Notes under the pieces: generated by a model
Database searches by the model: none
What the model was told of the DNA's origin: nothing
What the model saw: the letters and a program-made list of their open reading frames with translations, nothing else
From: a virus
IMG/VR virus record: IMGVR_UViG_3300016665_000824
Location: 64,001 to 128,000 of that record
Reading direction: 5' to 3' (one strand)
DNA: 64,000 bases
Program-made: the position numbers and the translations under genes
Part shown: piece after piece, positions 4,954-63,638 of the stretch
How the letters are laid out: each line of letters begins with the position of its first letter
Numbering within the stretch: the stretch's first letter is position 1

Positions 4954-5039
4954 GATTTAGATCTGAATACGTTGTCCGATAATAAGCGATCGCCAATTCA
5001 GCTTCATTTAAAATCTCCGAAGGCGCGATCGCTAAGATT

Positions 5040-11310: not shown

Positions 11311-11328
11311 GGTGATTCAGATCGGAAT
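11311..11328. repeat. 18-mer GGTGATTCAGATCGGAAT (copy 1), abutting stop codon of minus-strand gene 11329..12120
   Basis: Exact copy at 21272-21289; one-mismatch copy at 49106-49123. Confidence 0.6.
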
Positions 11329-19901: not shown

Positions 19902-20230
19902 TTAAGAAGCGTCCAGCGATCGGGCGGCTAGTAAGGTTGCCAAGTAAAATCGTCACTGTTGTGGGGTATAAGGATGGGGTTTTTCTAGTCCGCGTCGGCA
20001 CGGGAAAGACTCAGAAAATCACGGAATCGTTTCTTATGGCGCACGGCGTTCTTGTCGAGAAGGAGTGGCGCGAGGAGAAGAAGTCTGCACCCAAACAGGA
20101 ATACGTGAACCGAGAGTTTAAACGCTTCTTTGAGGAGCGAGCCGAAAGGGACTACCAAGAAAAAGTTCTTAAGGGCTTTAAGATTGAGGATGAAGTTATC
20201 GAAGGATTTGAGGCGATCGCGGAGGAATAA
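19898..20230 (+). CDS. hypothetical protein
   Basis: 110 aa; ends in junction repeat GGCGATCGCGGAGGAATAA. Confidence 0.4.
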   Translation: MIKKRPAIGRLVRLPSKIVTVVGYKDGVFLVRVGTGKTQKITESFLMAHGVLVEKEWREEKKSAPKQEYVNREFKRFFEERAERDYQEKVLKGFKIEDEVIEGFEAIAEE

Positions 20231-20233
20231 ATG
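20212..20233 (+). repeat. gene-junction repeat GGCGATCGCGGAGGAATAA + ATG (copy 1)
   Basis: Identical 19-mer at 20419-20437; degenerate third copy at 20682-20703. Confidence 0.7.
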
Positions 20234-20437
20234 GATATCGAAGAACTTGTTGCCGCAGCATCCGTAAGTCGGCATATATATCTTGAGCGCGTCGGCAAAG
20301 GTAGGCTACCAAAAGGATTTCCCTGTGGTGAGCTAATGTGCGTTAATTCGGACGGCAACCGAACTTATTTATTTGATTCGGCGAAAGTCTTAAAGTGGTG
20401 TCGAAAGCAAAATAATCAGGCGATCGCGGAGGAATAA
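20231..20437 (+). CDS. small DNA-binding protein candidate (excisionase/AlpA-like HTH)
   Basis: 68 aa; overall resemblance to excisionase-type HTH proteins; weak. Confidence 0.3.
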   Translation: MDIEELVAAASVSRHIYLERVGKGRLPKGFPCGELMCVNSDGNRTYLFDSAKVLKWCRKQNNQAIAEE

Positions 20438-20439
20438 TG
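20419..20439 (+). repeat. gene-junction repeat GGCGATCGCGGAGGAATAA + ATG (copy 2)
   Basis: Read directly; combines HIP1, GGAGGA, stop TAA and next ATG. Confidence 0.7.
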
Positions 20440-20703
20440 CGAAAAATAGACAAGGACTACAGTTTTACAGAACGAGAGATTCAGGCGTTAATGTTGATAT
20501 GCACTATTGGACGAGAAGACTGGCTCACTAAAGAGGTGAAGGAGATATTGTCGCAATACATAAGCAGAAAGATGTATCACAGGACTGCTTCTCAAGTCTT
20601 TGCTCACAGAAAAAGAGTTCTGGGTTCTTTCCCTAGCAATGCGGGTAAATACTTACTTGAAAGGCGAACTAGCTTTATTGAGCGATCGCGGAGGAGTGAG
20701 TAA
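20437..20703 (+). CDS. hypothetical protein
   Basis: 88 aa; ATG overlaps upstream stop (TAATG). Confidence 0.4.
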   Translation: MRKIDKDYSFTEREIQALMLICTIGREDWLTKEVKEILSQYISRKMYHRTASQVFAHRKRVLGSFPSNAGKYLLERRTSFIERSRRSE

Positions 20704-20710
20704 AAATATA

Positions 20711-20745
20711 AAAAGACGATCCGACGTGAGATCGGATCGTCTTTT
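20711..20745. terminator. bidirectional intrinsic terminator between convergent genes
   Basis: 14-bp perfect stem AAAAGACGATCCGA/TCGGATCGTCTTTT, 7-nt loop; A-run on one side and T-run on the other. Confidence 0.6.
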
Positions 20746-20874
20746 TATATTTTGGTAGGCTGTGAAACAACTAATACAAAAGGGTTTTAGGGTATTGGAA
20801 GGAATTTTGGTAAGGTGTGAATCTCGCTGCTTTTTAATTACGCGAATACACGTAATTCATATTTACCAATACCT

Positions 20875-22632
20875 CTAGCTAGCGATCGCCATTAATTTAG
20901 TCAACCCAGCCTTCCGCAACATCTCTTGCTGGAGCTTGGTTTGAAAATATGGCTTATCCTCAGCACTTGCTACTCGATACAGTTCCAGCCAGTATTTCTC
21001 CCGCTTCTCGCAGTGTATATGCTGAATCTTGGCGATCGCACGGTCAACCACTGCCTTGACATCGCCAGCGATCGCCTCTTGCATTGCGTAAGGTATGTCC
21101 GAAAAGTCATCGTTCAGGAATTTATCCCACAGCGCACAGTGATCGTCATGGGCAAATTCGATCTCTTGAAGCAGGATATACCCCCGCAAATCGGGATGAT
21201 GGACAAAGGCTTTTAGTATCTGCATTTCGGCTAGTTGCAGAGCAGTATAACTGGGTTTTGCGGCAACCTGTGGTGATTCAGATCGGAATACCGATCGCGC
21301 AAGTCGATGTAAATCCTCCTCAATGCGTACGGCAAGGCGAGCATTTCCCTGAGCTAACTTCTGAGCACACTTATGGGTATAGTGGCTACGTCGGGCATCC
21401 ATCGGCAATGGGGCGAGTATTTGCGCGATCGCTTGATTAGCTCGCTGGAAGTCGGCAGAATTGTTAAGGTCTTTGCCCTTAATCTCAAGGTCAATTAACC
21501 AGTCAAGGTATAGCGGCGCTTCGCGGAGCAGCGATAAGTACGCTTCAGAACCATAAGTGGTTAGGTACTCGTCGGCATCTTTTTTGCCCTCAATGGTTAG
21601 TATCCGTAGATTTACCGTACCATCCAGAACTAGCTCTAGGACTTGACTTACGGCTTTTTTAGTTGCCGTAACACCTGCTTTGTCCGAGTCGAAGTTGCAA
21701 ACTATACGCTTCGACTCAGTATGGCGTAAAACCTGTTTAATTTGAGCGGCGCTAAGCGCTGTGCCCATTGAGCCGACTGCATGGGTAATTCCATTTTGGT
21801 GCAGGGAAATCACGTCGAGGTGTCCTTCGACAATTACCGCCTCGTCGTTCTTGGCGATCGCCTCACAAGCTTTGTCTAGTCCAAACAGTAGTTCACCCTT
21901 TTTGAACAACTCGGTTTCGGGCGAGTTGATATACTTTGCGCCGTCGTCCTCACCGCTTAGCGATCGCGCAGAAAATCCAACCACGCGACCACGGATATCG
22001 GCGATCGGGATAATCAGGCGATCGCGAAATCGGTCATAGTAGCCTTCGTTTTCTTTGCGAGGTATCGCCAACCCCAATTCTTCAAGAGTTTGAACGGGGA
22101 TATTTAACTCGGCAAGGTTACTCCACCCCGCAGGCGCGTAACCGAGCTTGAACTTATTGCAGGTATCTCTGGTGATTTTGCGTTTTTCTAAGTAGGCAAG
22201 GGCTTTGGTGTTGAGCTGTTGCTGGTAGTAACGAGTGACTTTAGCTATTTGATCGAAGAGGTATTCCCTGTGCGATCGCTCCTTAACGATTTGCTCGGCA
22301 TGTTCTGGCTCTTCGGTTCTTACTTCAACCCCGTAACGACCAGCCAAATCTAGTACGGCATCTGGGAACGATTTATGACCAATCTCCATCATAAACTTGA
22401 TCGCACCACCCGACGCACCGCAGTTATGGCAGTAATACATGCCTTTGCTGGGGTCTACCGAGAGGGCGCTGGGATTCGTGCCGTTGTGAAATGGGCAAGC
22501 GCCACGAAATGAGTGACCCGACCGCTTAAGTACGACGTTTTCGCTAACGACATCAACGATGTCGGCTTTGTCGTTTACTGCGGCGATCGTATCAGCATGG
22601 ATTCGGAATGATTTAGGTTTGGCGGATTGCAT
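20875..22632 (-). CDS. DNA primase, DnaG-like (CHC2 zinc finger + Toprim)
   Basis: CPFHNGTNPSALSVDPSKGMYYCHNCGASG zinc-binding motif; Toprim-like EGHLDVISL and NFDSDKAG. Confidence 0.75.
   Translation of the reverse strand: MQSAKPKSFRIHADTIAAVNDKADIVDVVSENVVLKRSGHSFRGACPFHNGTNPSALSVDPSKGMYYCHNCGASGGAIKFMMEIGHKSFPDAVLDLAGRYGVEVRTEEPEHAEQIVKERSHREYLFDQIAKVTRYYQQQLNTKALAYLEKRKITRDTCNKFKLGYAPAGWSNLAELNIPVQTLEELGLAIPRKENEGYYDRFRDRLIIPIADIRGRVVGFSARSLSGEDDGAKYINSPETELFKKGELLFGLDKACEAIAKNDEAVIVEGHLDVISLHQNGITHAVGSMGTALSAAQIKQVLRHTESKRIVCNFDSDKAGVTATKKAVSQVLELVLDGTVNLRILTIEGKKDADEYLTTYGSEAYLSLLREAPLYLDWLIDLEIKGKDLNNSADFQRANQAIAQILAPLPMDARRSHYTHKCAQKLAQGNARLAVRIEEDLHRLARSVFRSESPQVAAKPSYTALQLAEMQILKAFVHHPDLRGYILLQEIEFAHDDHCALWDKFLNDDFSDIPYAMQEAIAGDVKAVVDRAIAKIQHIHCEKREKYWLELYRVASAEDKPYFQTKLQQEMLRKAGLTKLMAIAS
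21272..21289. repeat. 18-mer GGTGATTCAGATCGGAAT (copy 2), inside primase coding sequence
   Basis: Encodes VFRSESP in the primase frame. Confidence 0.6.
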
Positions 22633-32340: not shown

Positions 32341-32384
32341 GATCGCCACTTTTTCAGATCTGAATTACCACAAAAGCACAATGA
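32341..32384 (+). repeat. junction repeat R2 (...AGATCTGAATTACCACAAAAGCACAATGA), copy a
   Basis: 29-bp identical core at 32356-32384 and 33097-33125, flanked by near-identical GATCGNCNCTTTTT. Confidence 0.75.
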
Positions 32385-45160: not shown

Positions 45161-45386
45161 AGAAGATGCTGAAGAATGCTTAGCTAAAAATCTAAAGGTT
45201 GTAACGCGCTATGGGCTAGGCGAAATTATTTCGATCGCCAAGAAAAGCGACCCAGTACAATGGGCAGAGATAAAACAACTTGACCGCGATCGCCAGTTTG
45301 AAGTACCCAGATGTCTATACCTATCGAGCATCAGCAGATATACTGCTGTTTTGGTTGAGCAAAGTGAAGTAGAAAGTATTTTTTAA
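45153..45386 (+). CDS. hypothetical small protein (start at ATG 45153 after GGAGGG)
   Basis: Internal ATG of track ORF 44979..45386 with RBS. Confidence 0.35.
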   Translation: MTREDAEECLAKNLKVVTRYGLGEIISIAKKSDPVQWAEIKQLDRDRQFEVPRCLYLSSISRYTAVLVEQSEVESIF

Positions 45387-47011
45387 TATCCCGATCGCCA
45401 CACGATATCCATCAGAGTTTCCCTACCAGCGAAAGCAATAACACAAGCGTCACTACAATTAGGCGATCGCCCCAATCTACGAATAGTTTTAGAAGCCTTA
45501 TCCTCAATGCGTAACTTCGCGTTGGGGGTTTCTTCGTAGTAGACGTTACTAAAGTCCGTCATCAGATATTCTTCCTCCTCTAGTGGTGCGATCGCCGATA
45601 TATCGTCATTGCCATCGGCAGCAGCAAAGAATTCACGCAGTTTCCAATACCATTGAGCCTTCCAGTTCATATATAGCTGATCGAAGTCTTGGTTGGCATC
45701 TTCTTCTACCGCATCACCAAAGTTAGCTGCCCATACTTGCGCTCCCCATCCGCGATCGAGCAAGTAAGCTAATGTACCCGAACCAACACCCGTGGCATCT
45801 ATACCCACTTTACAGTTAGGATAGACGCGCAGATATTCTTCCTCAATGATTTGGGCAATACGAATAACGTCTTTGCGATCGCCTACACAGGGGATAACCC
45901 TCGCGATCTTAAGCACATTACCTTGAAACCCACAAATAGCATGGTCATCACTCATGGAGCCGACATCTACACCAAAACTCCAAGGTGTATTGACATTGAT
46001 AATTGTTTCCCACAGATCGGGATTGAGATCGTATCTTGCCCGTGCCGCAACAAAGTAGCTCTTGGGAAGTATAGACGCGCCACCCGATTCCGAGAACAAG
46101 CCCTCAATACGAGTCAGCCAGAAAGGTGAGTTTTCACCCTTCTTGATACGCATCCTTTCAATCCATGCGATCGAGATAGCACCCTTGATTACATCTCTGG
46201 GTAAGTCAGCATCCCATTCGGATTGAGGTTTGATTGGCTCGTCGCGAGAGTTGGGGTCATTAGGCGATCGCTTAATCTTTGCCTCGACCTCTGGTTTAAG
46301 TCGGTGCATCCCATCAAGATGCAGGTCGTAAGCCCATTCAACATTTGGGTGCTGCCATGCACTGCATCTGATATGGCTGAGGTTGCAAGCAGTATAGAAA
46401 GGGGAGTCACATCTGGTTGGGTTGCCAATACGAAGAATCTTATTTTGTTCCCCTGTAAGACAGCTTTCTAGGGAGGTATCTACGGCAGGACTGATACCAC
46501 AGGCTTCATCTTCAATAATAAGCATTCGTTCTGAGTGGATACCCTGCGCTGCCGAATCATTATGGTCACTACTGGAAAAGCCGTATGCCTCAACCCCTTC
46601 TTCGAGGAATACCCGCAGCTCATTTCTCTTGCCGCCGAGCTTCTTCTTGTGTTTGTCGTATAGACGACGGACAACGCCCCAAAGCAACTTAGTAACCTGT
46701 CGGTGAGTTGGTGCGGTAGAGATAACAAGCGATCGCACAGCAAATACCGCCCAGAGGACTAACCACCCACTCAAGTATGTCTTGCCTAAACCGTGGCAGG
46801 CGGCAACATTGGTAACACGCTTGTTCTTGACCGATTCAAGAATGGTGATCTGTTGTCCCGTGATAACAATATCGGGTTCAAGGTATCGAATAAATCCTTC
46901 GGGGTCGTCGGCAAATCGGGTTAAGTCTTCACCGATCGCCACATCCCCCTCATTACCTGATACCAGCTTAATCTGCGTATTACAGCTCGTCTTCAGTCTC
47001 GCAAAGCCCAC
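45383..47011 (-). CDS. terL: terminase large subunit
   Basis: Walker A-like ACHGLGKT, Walker B-like LIIEDEA; 542 aa. Confidence 0.75.
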   Translation of the reverse strand: MGFARLKTSCNTQIKLVSGNEGDVAIGEDLTRFADDPEGFIRYLEPDIVITGQQITILESVKNKRVTNVAACHGLGKTYLSGWLVLWAVFAVRSLVISTAPTHRQVTKLLWGVVRRLYDKHKKKLGGKRNELRVFLEEGVEAYGFSSSDHNDSAAQGIHSERMLIIEDEACGISPAVDTSLESCLTGEQNKILRIGNPTRCDSPFYTACNLSHIRCSAWQHPNVEWAYDLHLDGMHRLKPEVEAKIKRSPNDPNSRDEPIKPQSEWDADLPRDVIKGAISIAWIERMRIKKGENSPFWLTRIEGLFSESGGASILPKSYFVAARARYDLNPDLWETIINVNTPWSFGVDVGSMSDDHAICGFQGNVLKIARVIPCVGDRKDVIRIAQIIEEEYLRVYPNCKVGIDATGVGSGTLAYLLDRGWGAQVWAANFGDAVEEDANQDFDQLYMNWKAQWYWKLREFFAAADGNDDISAIAPLEEEEYLMTDFSNVYYEETPNAKLRIEDKASKTIRRLGRSPNCSDACVIAFAGRETLMDIVWRSGY

Positions 47012-47847: not shown

Positions 47848-48125
47848 AACACCACATTGTCAAAAGAAAATGGGACTAACTCCCCGTTGTCGAAGCGAAT
47901 CCACACCCTCTCACAAGCGATCGCCACTGTCTCTACGGTTGCCTCAAGCCCATACTTGCCATTGCCAGGGTATAGGCATACTACGCGATCGCCTTCTTCG
48001 GGAGTATATCTTCCGAGGCGTTTTAGAACTGTCTTTAGCTTGTGTATCATATTTTGCTTATTACTAACGGCAAGCCTGTTAGGAGATCGCATATTAACGA
48101 CAAACTTCAAGCTATAGACTTTCAA
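47826..48125 (-). CDS. hypothetical protein
   Basis: 99 aa ORF. Confidence 0.35.
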   Translation of the reverse strand: MKVYSLKFVVNMRSPNRLAVSNKQNMIHKLKTVLKRLGRYTPEEGDRVVCLYPGNGKYGLEATVETVAIACERVWIRFDNGELVPFSFDNVVLCDQQNQ

Positions 48126-48465
48126 AAGTTACAGCTTGATTAGCAAACATCCTGATCTGCTGAATCAACATCATTTTGTTTTCAGGGTTCGATTCTGCTT
48201 TGAGTTGATCATGCAGATTTAAAATCCACTCAGTAACCTTGACTGTGGATTCTTTTGCGGGGCTATCAAACAACCCTATGATTTGTGCGATCGCCTCCTT
48301 AGAGATTTCGTCCCACCCCATAGAGTCAATACTGCTAGCCAAAACAAAACTCAGCCTATTAACCGCTTCGTGTTTAGCTTTTCTATCCTCGGTTGTGGGC
48401 GGATGATATTTAAACCAATCACTCAACGGGATACCTAGATATAGTGCTTCCATAATTCTCCTCAA
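48112..48465 (-). CDS. hypothetical protein (first gene of terminase operon)
   Basis: 117 aa ORF. Confidence 0.4.
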   Translation of the reverse strand: MRRIMEALYLGIPLSDWFKYHPPTTEDRKAKHEAVNRLSFVLASSIDSMGWDEISKEAIAQIIGLFDSPAKESTVKVTEWILNLHDQLKAESNPENKMMLIQQIRMFANQAVTFESL

Positions 48466-48485
48466 ATGCTTTATAAAGGTAGGTT

Positions 48486-48580
48486 AAAACCCATCAGTTA
48501 AACCTTCAAGCACTGCCTTCAACAATATACGCGGCGCGTGTATCTCTGGCTTAGCTCTATTGATTTAACTGATGGGTTTT
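48486..48580. promoter_or_regulatory. perfect 17-bp inverted repeat (AAAACCCATCAGTTAAA / TTTAACTGATGGGTTTT) with 61-nt spacer
   Basis: Read directly: arms 48486-48502 and 48564-48580, inside a 657-bp ORF-free region upstream of the terminase operon. Confidence 0.5.
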
Positions 48581-49105
48581 GCAGAGAGTGGATTTTGCCT
48601 TTTTAGGAGCGCCAAGTAATTAGTTTTGGAAGAACAATTACTAACAAACTTTTATGCGATCGCACAACATGGCTTTTTCCTGATTCCTACATAGGCTTTT
48701 ACCCTGTAATGCCATGAATTTATAGGTTCAGCGATCGCATGGTAGACAGATTACTCTGTCCGCACTTTCTCTGGACAAGAAAGTAGTGGGATAATCAACC
48801 GCCAGCACCATATCTGGCATTCGTCACCACGAGGGCTTAAGGTGTGTGTTGCCACAGTTGATTGTTTGCTAGCGTACTGGAAAGGCGATCACTATTGCCT
48901 CATGACCACCTAAAACTCGCTCATATATTAAGGTTAGGCTTCGAGCAAGGCTTAATCTCAGGTCTAGCACCCCCTGTTCGACACCTTACTGCCGCAGGGA
49001 CGGTGCGATCGCCTACCAACTAGGGAAATTTATTCAATAACCACACGGAGAGACCCCGACGTTCATTGATAGTGCGATCGCAACATAATTCTAACACAGT
49101 CTTGT

Positions 49106-49123
49106 GGTGGTTCAGATCGGAAT
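49106..49123. repeat. 18-mer GGTGGTTCAGATCGGAAT (copy 3), overlapping stop codon of minus-strand gene 49123..49605
   Basis: One mismatch relative to copies 1 and 2. Confidence 0.55.
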
Positions 49124-49605
49124 TAGTTGGCTGCTCGACCACCACATCTAGTACCATCTGCGGCAGTCTGCCATGAGTATTGACAGTTTCCAGAGTATCC
49201 AGAAGTGTTTGAGGGTGGATTGTCTAGCAAATAAACAGGCTTTTGCTGACAAGTTAAAGAAGCACTATCAAAGGTTGAATCCGTCGGGCAGGGGGCAGTA
49301 CAAAGAGTCCCATCCCCACGTCTGTCGATAGTTCCTTTTGGGCAAGCACTACCAACCAGAAACCCTTGACTTGGAGAAGTTTTTTGTGATGAGGTTGGGA
49401 TGCTTCTTGATTCGCTAGTCGTATTGATAGAAGTCCCATTGTTGCCCGTACATAGATGGTCCAGATTTACCAGAACCCCTCGGCTGTTGACCATATAACA
49501 CAAGGGCAAGTTGCTGGGTAGCCCCTCAAAAGGATCTTTAGCGATCGCTAGTTGAGGCAAGGCAAAAATAGTAACAAGAGACAACAAGACACCGATCTTT
49601 TTCAA
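49123..49605 (-). CDS. secreted Cys-rich protein
   Basis: N-terminal signal-peptide-like MKKIGVLLSLVTIFALPQLAIA; 10 Cys in the mature part. Confidence 0.5.
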   Translation of the reverse strand: MKKIGVLLSLVTIFALPQLAIAKDPFEGLPSNLPLCYMVNSRGVLVNLDHLCTGNNGTSINTTSESRSIPTSSQKTSPSQGFLVGSACPKGTIDRRGDGTLCTAPCPTDSTFDSASLTCQQKPVYLLDNPPSNTSGYSGNCQYSWQTAADGTRCGGRAAN

Positions 49606-49671: not shown

Positions 49672-50331
49672 CTAGCCTCCGTAATAGTCAGCACATAAAT
49701 ACTCAAGCGATCGCCCTATTTTAACCGAGTAATTCTCACCCTCGATACTAGCTTCCTGCATCACCTTTTCTAAAGCCGCTCTCACGATCTCCACAGCGTC
49801 CGTAGGAACACTAAAGATCATTCGAGTGAATTCATCACTGGCTTCGGGAGGAGCTTTCTCCTTGGCGGCTTCGAGCATCTTGGCGAGACTTTCCTTTGTG
49901 TGAGGTGTGGGGAGATAAGCGCGATCGCCTAATTTCTTTTCAACCCTTTTGAGGGAAACACTTAGCTTAACTGGATCTTCTTCGCCGTGAGCCTTGGATG
50001 CGGAGGTGTATAACTCGTATTCTTCATCCTGTAAGCCCGTAATGACATTGCAATAGTAGTATTCCAGCCCCTCTAAGTATCTATGTTCGCCATTTACAAT
50101 CTCGTACTCACCCTCAATATGCGGATGGGGGCGAACAACAAGCGGCTCAATTTGGGTAAACATCTTTAAGCTCTCCCCCAAAGCCTTTTGGTGGTGAGGC
50201 TGCAAAACGTTTGAGTTCCAAGAGTTCGGATGTATCTTTGAGGTCTCAATCTTTACATTCCACTCTTTCTGGATTCGTTGCGCGATCGGTAGCGAATAAT
50301 CAATCTTCTTCGTCATCTTCATCCTCTTCAA
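49672..50331 (-). CDS. ParB-like nuclease domain protein
   Basis: EIVNGEHRY resembles the ParB N-terminal GxxR-type motif; weak. Confidence 0.35.
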   Translation of the reverse strand: MKRMKMTKKIDYSLPIAQRIQKEWNVKIETSKIHPNSWNSNVLQPHHQKALGESLKMFTQIEPLVVRPHPHIEGEYEIVNGEHRYLEGLEYYYCNVITGLQDEEYELYTSASKAHGEEDPVKLSVSLKRVEKKLGDRAYLPTPHTKESLAKMLEAAKEKAPPEASDEFTRMIFSVPTDAVEIVRAALEKVMQEASIEGENYSVKIGRSLEYLCADYYGG

Positions 50332-51481
50332 ATTTCTTGGGCATAATTACCGATGTCAGGAATGATTCCTGCTCTACTCCGTCGCAAGGGCTAACCATTA
50401 CTAGCGGTCGAGTTCCCTCGTATACCTCCAGCTTAATGTGTTTTGATTTTGTGGTATCCAAAATATGCTGCAAGTATTTTATGTTGAACCGAGCAGCAAA
50501 TCCTGACACGCCAACATCGCATGGCAGTGATTCTTCCACCCTGCCAACACCCGCAACTTCAGCAACAAGTATCAACTCATCACCCTTGATAGTGATGTCA
50601 ACCAAGTAGCTAGTAATCTCACCCTCACACAACGAAGCAACGGTCTTCAAGCTGGTAATCAGCTCTTTGCGATCGCACTTTACCGACCCAGACATCTCTT
50701 TGAGCCGTACGTTAACGAGACTCGATCGTACTGGTGGAAATGGTTGAGCAATTAGTGGTGAGATGATGGTTAGCGCGTGGCTATAAAACCAAATATGGTT
50801 ACTGGCTAAACGCACTTCAGTCTCTGCTTGGGTGATGTGCAGAACCTCTTTGAGCGATCGCGCAGGTATTGTCGCATTAATCAGCTTTTCACTCAATTCG
50901 GGGTGGACAAATCTGATACAAGATCCTCGACAGCCATCGGTTGCTGTGAAGGATAGGAATCTCGTCGGGTCATCTTCACCATCAATGATTTCGTCGTACT
51001 CCGCTAGGTTCACACCCGTAAGTGCAGGCTTAGTTTCGTCGTTAGATACGAGCTTTAAGGTAGCCACAATGCCGTCCCGCAGTATATCTGTGGCGATCGC
51101 AAAGGTGTCAGCATCAGTAATCTTGGGGGTGCTTGGGTATGAGTCGGCGCTGATAGTTGGTAGTGAGATTTTACTCTTACCACACTTAATAGTGGCAATA
51201 CCTTCGGATACCTTGATTAAAACCTCTTCACCGTTGAGGGACTTTACCGCGTCGGAGAATCGCTTGGCATTGAGCGCGATCGCGCCCTCTTCTTTGATAC
51301 TATCGGAATCCTCTCTGCGGATTAGCCAAAGCTTTAGGTCGGTAGCTGTGATGGTGAAGAGATCGTTCTTCGCTTCGAGTCGAAAGTTTGTTAAGATTTC
51401 CTGCGGTGGAGACTTAGAAACAGCTTCCTTTACTGCGTCCACCATCGATTTCAACGTTTTGAGAGGGAGTGTTAGTTGCAT
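50300..51481 (-). CDS. dnaN: DNA polymerase III beta subunit-like sliding clamp
   Basis: Matches to DnaN pattern: LFTITATDL, FTATDGCRG, FNIKYLQHILD, MPKKF near C-terminus; acidic tail. Confidence 0.55.
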   Translation of the reverse strand: MQLTLPLKTLKSMVDAVKEAVSKSPPQEILTNFRLEAKNDLFTITATDLKLWLIRREDSDSIKEEGAIALNAKRFSDAVKSLNGEEVLIKVSEGIATIKCGKSKISLPTISADSYPSTPKITDADTFAIATDILRDGIVATLKLVSNDETKPALTGVNLAEYDEIIDGEDDPTRFLSFTATDGCRGSCIRFVHPELSEKLINATIPARSLKEVLHITQAETEVRLASNHIWFYSHALTIISPLIAQPFPPVRSSLVNVRLKEMSGSVKCDRKELITSLKTVASLCEGEITSYLVDITIKGDELILVAEVAGVGRVEESLPCDVGVSGFAARFNIKYLQHILDTTKSKHIKLEVYEGTRPLVMVSPCDGVEQESFLTSVIMPKKFEEDEDDEED

Positions 51482-57204: not shown

Positions 57205-57384
57205 AAGCTTTATGGATAAATATTCGTCTGATTAGACTGTCCGATCACCTGTCCAATGGACATCTGATTAGACTGTCCGATCAGAATAAAATTAGTGTAC
57301 TTAAGTTATTCGCACTTGTCAACAAAATAGTAGAAACTCGTTTTGAATGCGCTAATATTGGGCAATTCAACCTATTAAGACCTT

Positions 57385-58441: not shown

Positions 58442-58545
58442 ATGCACAAGAAATCCCGAAATCGTGTGCATGTTTATTCAATATACACAAGCAACCCGCC
58501 AAGCCTCTCTACGATGCTGAAACTGGCGGGTTGCTTGTGTTGTGA

Positions 58546-63533: not shown

Positions 63534-63548
63534 CAAACAGTCTAATAG

Positions 63549-63590
63549 CCAGACAAAAAAAGATCCGAAACTGGATCTTTTTTTGTCTGG
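63549..63590. terminator. bidirectional intrinsic terminator
   Basis: 18-bp perfect stem CCAGACAAAAAAAGATCC/GGATCTTTTTTTGTCTGG with 6-nt loop between convergent genes. Confidence 0.6.
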
Positions 63591-63638
63591 CTTGGTTTTC
63601 AACAAAAAAGCACCCCGCCTAAACGAGATGCTTTTCAC

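Follow-up and report, generated by a model that had tools for sequence, protein, structure and literature searches.

A candidate modular leader RNA at the head of the terminase operon in a clade of HIP1-rich phages

In the late operon of phage lambda, the promoter PR', the qut site and the 6S RNA/tR' leader precede an operon that includes the terminase genes. The put element of HK022 is a pair of stem-loops of about 70 nt near the promoter, and antitermination RNAs of this kind are defined by structure. In polycistronic mRNAs of phages, other hairpins serve as RNase III processing sites, as in T7 (R sites) and in the lambda N leader. How cyanobacterial phages regulate their late and packaging genes is, to our knowledge, essentially unstudied. 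According to an IMG/VR-wide survey, 14 candidate cis-regulatory structured RNAs, all uncharacterised, are found consistently upstream of a putative large terminase gene (PMC10690425).

The window analysed here is a stretch of 64,000 nt from an IMG/VR virus record, in which a 657-bp gap heads a minus-strand operon ending in the terminase genes terS and terL. With a probability of about 0.55, this gap comprises a promoter and a structured 5' leader RNA of about 630 nt, which would be transcribed from the minus strand and act in cis at the head of the packaging operon. The leader may be likened to those of phage late operons (lambda 6S/tR', HK022 put, the RNase III sites of T7 and lambda), and by the testable criteria of membership it belongs to none of the defined families. 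As in the PR' leader of lambda, a constitutive-looking promoter with an overlapping regulator site and a long non-coding leader would precede the terminase operon, but no Q-like gene was identified here, the leader was not found to hold any conserved intrinsic terminator, and with its length of about 230-700 nt, its modules and its many conserved hairpins it has no sequence relation to that of lambda. It shares with put the conserved stem-loop modules in a leader, which would act in cis on the polymerase, whereas the distance of its modules from the promoter is variable (38 to >200 nt) and no downstream terminators that need to be bypassed were found. The resemblance to RNase III hairpins lies in a near-perfect stem of 19 pairs with internal loops, just upstream of the ribosome binding site (RBS), although the stem and loop sequences are conserved more strictly than a structural processing site needs. 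The survey candidates are alike in lying upstream of terminase, and one group of relatives of the window (L001) likewise consists in part of IMG/VR contigs; the motif may be among those candidates (PMC10690425).

The preliminary description had named positions 48466-49122 as the longest non-coding stretch of the window. This holds in all frames for ORFs of at least 60 aa and of at least 75 aa, with which the runners-up are 295 bp and 368 bp long, respectively, while three other gaps exceed this one when the cut-off is 100 aa; the ORFs within it are all of 53 aa or less. The gap had been placed between a secreted-protein gene and the first gene of the operon, and its position at the head of a minus-strand operon ending in terS/terL stands, but its bounds are corrected here to the stop codon of a 160-aa ORF and the ATG of a 113-aa gene. 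Because all the surrounding genes are on the minus strand (Table 1), the gap must be read on that strand, as the 5' region of the operon. It consists of islands, numbered from 0 at the 5' edge to 3, which are conserved among four variants of the locus, and of spacers. A coding reading was rejected: the only common small ORF, of 30 codons in island 1, has no Shine-Dalgarno (SD) sequence and is cut short to 8 codons in the variant L077, with a 5-nt indel upstream, and indels in the gap are not multiples of three. This truncation and the frame-breaking indels argue that the gap is not coding. The HIP1 octamer GCGATCGC occurs in 185 copies per 64 kb against about 1 expected, and the four octamers in the gap are attributable to this genome-wide excess. 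HIP1 richness is a signature of cyanobacteria and their phages. The window is part of a metagenomic contig of 134 kb (ENA ERZ27292652 k141_20893).

Table 1. Features of the gap and its surroundings (positions in the window unless a relative is named)
Feature	Position	Strand	Remark
M23 peptidase		minus	first of the gene series around the gap
DNA polymerase III beta clamp	50300-51481	minus	
ParB-N-domain (ParB-like) protein	49672-50331	minus	
160-aa ORF	49123-49605	minus	its stop borders the gap
18-mer ATTCCGATCTGAACCACC	49106-49123; core 49111-49122	minus	12-bp palindromic core TTCNGATCNGAA
12-bp palindrome, copies in the window	49111-49122, 11316-11327, 21277-21288, 32353-32364		
12-bp palindrome, relatives	L001 7110, L063 1410, L065 424, L077 3179		
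Extended -10-like element TGTGTTAGAAT	49088-49098; hexamer 49093-49088	minus	TG-n-TAGAAT
Module X	49005-49081	minus	HIP1-bounded; small hairpin CGGGGUCUCUCCG (49058-49046), then U-rich tail
Island 1a	48792-48864	minus	73-nt three-way junction; 4/4 variants
Island 1b	48744-48785	minus	two adjoining hairpins; absent from L077
Island 2	48607-48661	minus	55-nt hairpin, starts at a HIP1 site, conserved loop; absent from L077
Island 3	48485-48582	minus	rod-like hairpin of 96-98 nt
Small SD hairpin	48460-48478	minus	CUUUA...UGAGG, just ahead of the 113-aa ATG
113-aa gene	48112-48453; ATG 48453-48451	minus	first gene after the leader; Acb2/Tad1-hairpin-like family
Two small ORFs		minus	between the 113-aa gene and TerS
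Putative small terminase TerS, 195 aa		minus	after the two small ORFs
TerL	45383-47011	minus	PHROG 2, E 8e-28

The 113-aa protein belongs to a family of 113-144 aa with the invariant motifs YHPP..T..RKAKH and IQQ.RMFANQ. PF24729 (Acb2/Tad1 hairpin domain) is matched by 10 of 14 family members with a best E of 5.8e-10, the window's own copy reaching E 0.004 only, and the resemblance suggests an anti-CBASS/anti-Thoeris nucleotide sponge. Single and profile searches of the 113-aa protein against PDB sequences gave no meaningful match. On our own assumption, we would expect an anti-defence sponge of this class to be needed early. The gene moves between unrelated phage contexts.

Relatives were sought with TerL, then with the 113-aa protein, then with TerS and finally by contig look-ups. 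The same gap, at the head of the terS-terL operon, was recovered in three further independent variants, namely the L001 group (IMG/VR, JGI and ENA contigs; TerL 69% identical), L065 (a Logan contig) and L077 (the same variant as L078; contigs of 140 kb and 46 kb; TerS 75% identical), and these together with the window are the four variants compared. The relatives are uncultured HIP1-rich phages of a cyanobacterial phage group. L077, the minimal variant, lacks the 113-aa gene; island 0, island 1a and island 3 alone, about 235 nt in all, stand upstream of its terS. Conversely, where the 113-aa gene turns up in several other phage settings, no islands accompany it. Both findings indicate that the leader goes with the head of the operon rather than with this gene. 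Comparison of 6.1 kb with 50,697 phage records by blastn gave no match, and tblastn with TerL against sequenced phages gave a best identity of 29%, that is, no close isolate. Neither nhmmer nor covariance models found the islands in about 40 loci with TerL identities of 24-47%, all of them HIP1-containing, which limits the islands to the close clade; a long stretch without ORFs before terS is no general feature of these distant relatives either. Four exact or degenerate patterns scanned across IMG/VR retrieved L001-group contigs only, plus chance hits that were rejected by the models. In a further set of Logan/ENA contigs (L079-L082), the 3' part of the gap with islands 2 and 3 is identical to L001. 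All four independent assemblies of this related phage begin within or beside the gap, some 130-300 bp before the 113-aa gene, and their TerS is closer to that of the window (81%) despite the L001-type islands 2 and 3; this pattern points to mosaicism, together with population heterogeneity or assembly-breaking repeats in the gap.

The 18-mer ATTCCGATCTGAAYCACC, reported earlier at the far end of the gap, was found there (49106-49123) and at 11311-11328 and 21272-21289, each on the minus strand; when up to three mismatches are allowed, the window has four matches where 0.08 are expected. A terminator-like hairpin (11300-11270, minus strand) follows the copy at 11.3 kb. At the gap, the first base of the 18-mer is also the final base of the upstream gene's stop codon. 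Its palindromic core, of which 0.2 copies are expected in the window against the four present, occurs exactly once per relative and directly follows the stop codon of the preceding gene, which differs between variants; such adjacency to a stop codon is seen at 49123 and 11328 of the window and in all four relatives. The 18-mer with its palindrome is probably a protein-binding site or a cassette boundary at the 5' edge of the leader. For the palindrome itself three roles are conceivable, namely operator, boundary of a cassette, or centromere-like site of the neighbouring ParB-like protein. Close to it, the motif GTGTTAGAAT within the extended -10-like region is invariant in all four variants. 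In L065, the palindrome lies about 10 bp, one helical turn, nearer to the -10 element, so that the helical phase is kept, and it looks like an operator. A sigma-70 scan of the gap called no minus-strand promoter, the element having been missed because its -35 is poor. From its conservation we infer that TGTTAGAAT is an extended -10 promoter element and that transcription starts near 49085-49080. Of the earlier suggestion of a late-promoter or regulator region, the promoter or regulator part is supported by this invariant element and the palindrome at the 5' edge of the four variants.

Downstream of the putative start, the minus-strand sequence folds into separate modules. Module X is homologous to positions 818-893 of L065, lying before island 1 in the window and after it in L065, and its hairpin is terminator-like in the window only. 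The three-way junction of island 1a has AAUCAACU/GGUUGAUU as its helix P1. It further comprises a hairpin with a GNRA loop, GUG-GCAA-CAC, an unpaired conserved segment, CCUUAAGCCC, and a second hairpin, GCCAG-AUAUGGUG-CUGGC. The stems of island 1b are 9 bp with the loop GUCCA and 7 bp with a GNRA loop (GUAA). Island 2 has undergone three one-sided changes, all of which still pair as minus-strand RNA. Two tertiary contacts were considered and rejected. Long-range pairing of island 1a (CCUUAAGC) with island 3 (GCUUGAAGG) is suggestive in L001 and L065, and in the window and L077 the duplex energies are no better than those of shuffles. An apparent 11-nt tetraloop receptor (CCUAAG/UAUGG) is a mere resemblance, since it varies (CAUGG in L001) and clashes with a supported hairpin.

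Island 3 contains the perfect 17-bp inverted repeat of the preliminary description, the arms of which (48486-48502 and 48564-48580) are indeed 100% complementary and 61 nt apart; no inverted repeat of at least 17 nt with a spacer of at most 100 nt arose in 20 shuffles of the window. The repeat is the basal stem of the island and, as RNA, extends to 19 pairs by an added U·G and a C-G pair (arms 48580-48562 and 48504-48486) with A4/U4 at the base. Above it lie three short helices, conserved internal loops and an apical hairpin, ACGC-GCC-GCGU in the window. The GC palindrome described in the spacer is present at 48529-48539 of the plus strand, although it is odd-length and imperfect (ACGCG-G-CGCGT); it forms the 4 bp of this apical hairpin, ACGC-(G/A)CC-GCGU, in which the central base varies between relatives. 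The minimum free energy of island 3 is -40.9 kcal/mol (z = -7.39), and the 216-nt 3' part folds with z = -3.0. Over the four variants, 98.5% of the cells of island 3 are paired as against 33-45% in slid controls, and its covariance model scores 114 bits on the minus strand versus 41 bits on the plus strand. The island ends about 21-25 nt before the RBS in the proposed leader, and in every variant about 20-25 nt before a start codon. Between the island and the ATG, the small SD hairpin (pairs 195-199 with 209-213) covers the first bases of the Shine-Dalgarno sequence GAGGAG (48463-48458). Like fourU and ROSE thermometers and riboswitch platforms, it pairs a U-rich strand, CUUUA, with the 5' part of the SD sequence, G·U pairs included, and it resembles SD-sequestering hairpins in having one compensatory change; it differs from them in being weak, with only 5 bp, two of them G·U, and in its absence from L077.

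Identity of the islands between the four variants is 72-93% (85-93% in island 3, 72-93% in island 1a), while third codon positions are 68-73% identical in the adjacent 113-aa gene and 51% in TerL; the islands are conserved as strongly as first and second codon positions. Spacers between the islands are unalignable and of unequal length: the window has about 70 nt between islands 1 and 2, L001 about 110 nt and L065 about 210 nt. Nearly every module is flanked by HIP1 octamers (49074-49081, 49005-49012, 48731-48738 and 48656-48663 in the window). Since module X stands on the other side of island 1 in L065, exchange of modules by recombination at HIP1 sites is suggested, and HIP1 at the borders of exchangeable RNA modules hints at how leaders are rebuilt by recombination. 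Islands 1a and 3, the invariant pair, would form the functional core. The strict conservation of loop sequences argues for a specific partner of the leader. Stems are also strongly conserved in sequence and not in pairing alone, which fits sequence-specific recognition, so that a reader at the DNA level is also compatible.

The substitutions within the islands are of the type expected of a minus-strand RNA, in keeping with the earlier proposal of a structured non-coding RNA. Pairing survives five double compensatory changes, namely C-G to A-U in the stem of island 3, G-C to A-U and C-G to U-A at the closing pairs of the tetraloops of islands 1a and 1b, A-U to G-C in the SD hairpin of L065, and G-C to A-U in the hairpin of module X. 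Both tetraloops vary solely within the GNRA consensus (GCAA, GUAA or GCGA in island 1a; GUAA, GAAA or GGAA in island 1b). Of 15 one-sided transitions that are informative as to strand, 13 leave a G·U pair in minus-strand RNA, where plus-strand RNA would have A·C, and 2 do the opposite (binomial p of about 0.004). Pairing amounts overall to 98.7% for the minus strand and 87.2% for the plus strand, where the choice of helices by folding of the minus strand slightly favours the minus strand in percent pairing and less so in the count of variable sites. Tolerance of G·U on one strand only points to RNA rather than duplex DNA. In a column-shuffle control with the four sequences, 112/500 and 119/500 shuffles reach the observed scores, so covariation is not significant. 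For so few sequences, the evidence for an RNA and for its strand is good.

The leader RNA is most likely new relative to Rfam, restricted to this clade and modular, and it is probably cis-regulatory; as to its mechanism, we infer the following. Transcription would start just downstream of the extended -10 element, beside the 12-bp palindrome as the likely operator, and the transcript would fold into independent modules, the spacers between which can be exchanged freely. These modules would be a three-way junction bearing a GNRA hairpin, two hairpins, a 55-nt hairpin and a 96-nt rod, which would stop shortly ahead of an RBS partly held in the small hairpin. The leader would act in cis after initiation: the rod and the SD-sequestering hairpin would determine how well the first gene and the operon are translated, how stable their mRNA is, or both. 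This could plausibly come about through a site for dsRNA processing or for protein binding. Processing is plausible because 19 continuous pairs are of RNase III size; RNase III sites call for about two turns of dsRNA, and this continuous stem, kept in all variants, is a candidate for cleavage. Alternatively, the leader might attenuate transcription unless a factor is loaded at the promoter palindrome, as in PR'-qut-tR' of lambda. It is unlikely, in our estimation, that the islands are one new large modular class of phage RNA that does more than tune translation, either as a factor-independent, put-like antiterminator licensing transcription of the packaging genes or as a ligand- or protein-sensing switch; a switch, if true, would couple expression of the anti-defence sponge and terminase to the state of the infected cyanobacterium. 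A cis-acting leader at the head of terS-terL would offer a testable handle on the timing of packaging in these phages, and in most variants it would also time the Acb2/Tad1-like anti-defence gene.

The same RNA-level evidence would suit a stand-alone non-coding RNA, or several of them, situated before the packaging genes by chance, either trans-acting small RNAs or one large GNRA-containing RNA, with the A4/U4-based rod as 3' end or terminator and with a role as decoy, scaffold, factor-independent antiterminator or packaging cofactor. GNRA loops and a multi-module architecture are typical of larger functional RNAs, the modules are kept in L077 though the downstream gene differs, and island 3 ends in GGGUUUU. 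We nevertheless regard this as a rather doubtful alternative. Island 3 always ends so close to the start codon that no room is left for a separate promoter, and read-through would thus be required. An intrinsic terminator is expected to be a GC-rich hairpin with a loop of 3-8 nt followed by a U tract of at least 5 in 8, whereas the interior of island 3 measures 61 nt and its U tract is limited to 4-5 residues, which pair with the 5' A tract; a scan for intrinsic terminators did not call it, and the two hairpins that the scan did call in the gap are weak and do not keep their place among the variants. Furthermore, no large RNA or small RNA of Rfam matches. At the gathering score of Rfam 15 there is no match in the gap, where a chance mir-29 hit of 15 bits is the only one at E<=10, and the homologous loci L063, L065 and L077 have none at E<=5; as Rfam finds nothing, the leader is not a known RNA family. 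ARAGORN found zero tRNA or tmRNA genes in the whole window. The motif, being absent from Rfam, could be added once more homologues give significant covariation.

That the conserved blocks are DNA sites, namely a pac/cos site for the small terminase, a replication origin or operator arrays, appears improbable. The gap lies between replication genes (clamp, ParB-like) and packaging genes, pac/cos sites of several phages lie immediately upstream of terS, the conservation of stem sequences suits recognition by a protein, and the palindrome TTCNGATCNGAA is a plausible protein site. Recognition of duplex DNA, however, predicts neither the 13:2 strand asymmetry nor the five compensatory pairs, and variation restricted to GNRA loops has no rationale in DNA; the one-strand tolerance of G·U speaks against the packaging site that had been proposed. 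An origin, also proposed, finds no support in the gap, which has no iterons, no direct repeats other than HIP1 octamers and no AT-rich stretch for unwinding (GC content 36-52%). Nor is there a skew feature at 48.5-49.1 kb: cumulative skew follows gene orientation and turns at a peak at about 45-46 kb, where genes converge. Candidates for origin or operator repeats are found elsewhere, at 57227 and 57263. More improbable still is that the inverted repeat marks a MITE or another selfish insertion, or that the gap holds functionless remnants of decayed genes. Perfect 17-bp, terminal-like inverted repeats bounding about 95 bp would fit an insertion, as would the change in position of module X and the HIP1-bounded modules. 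Against this, the covariance models (R1 and R2) match only the syntenic site of the four variants, with no other copy in the 64-kb window or about 40 other loci, and a single-copy, syntenic element is not a MITE; the interior matches the arms in conservation, synonymous sites are less conserved, and the one small ORF shared by the variants is not maintained.

Some other parts of the window carry repeats or RNA-like features of their own. Identical 21-nt direct repeats TCTGATTAGACTGTCCGATCA lie 36 bp apart at 57227-57247 and 57263-57283, with a 76% copy at 4962, in a setting of 832 bp free of ORFs of at least 100 aa (368 bp at a cut-off of at least 75 aa). They look iteron- or operator-like and would be a better candidate than the gap for an origin or regulatory site. 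An abiF RNA (RF03085) at 58495-58531 on the plus strand (46.9 bits, E 1.7e-5) is the only Rfam match of the window above the gathering score. Perfect inverted repeats of 22 bp and 20 bp with loops of 6-7 nt and A/T tracts, at 20703-20753 and 63547-63592, look like bidirectional terminators. Finally, three copies of GCGATCGCGGAGGA(A/G)T, in which HIP1 is fused to an SD-like GGAGGA, are spaced by 207 and 262 bp ahead of short ORFs at 20213-20714 and look like a repeated translation-start cassette.
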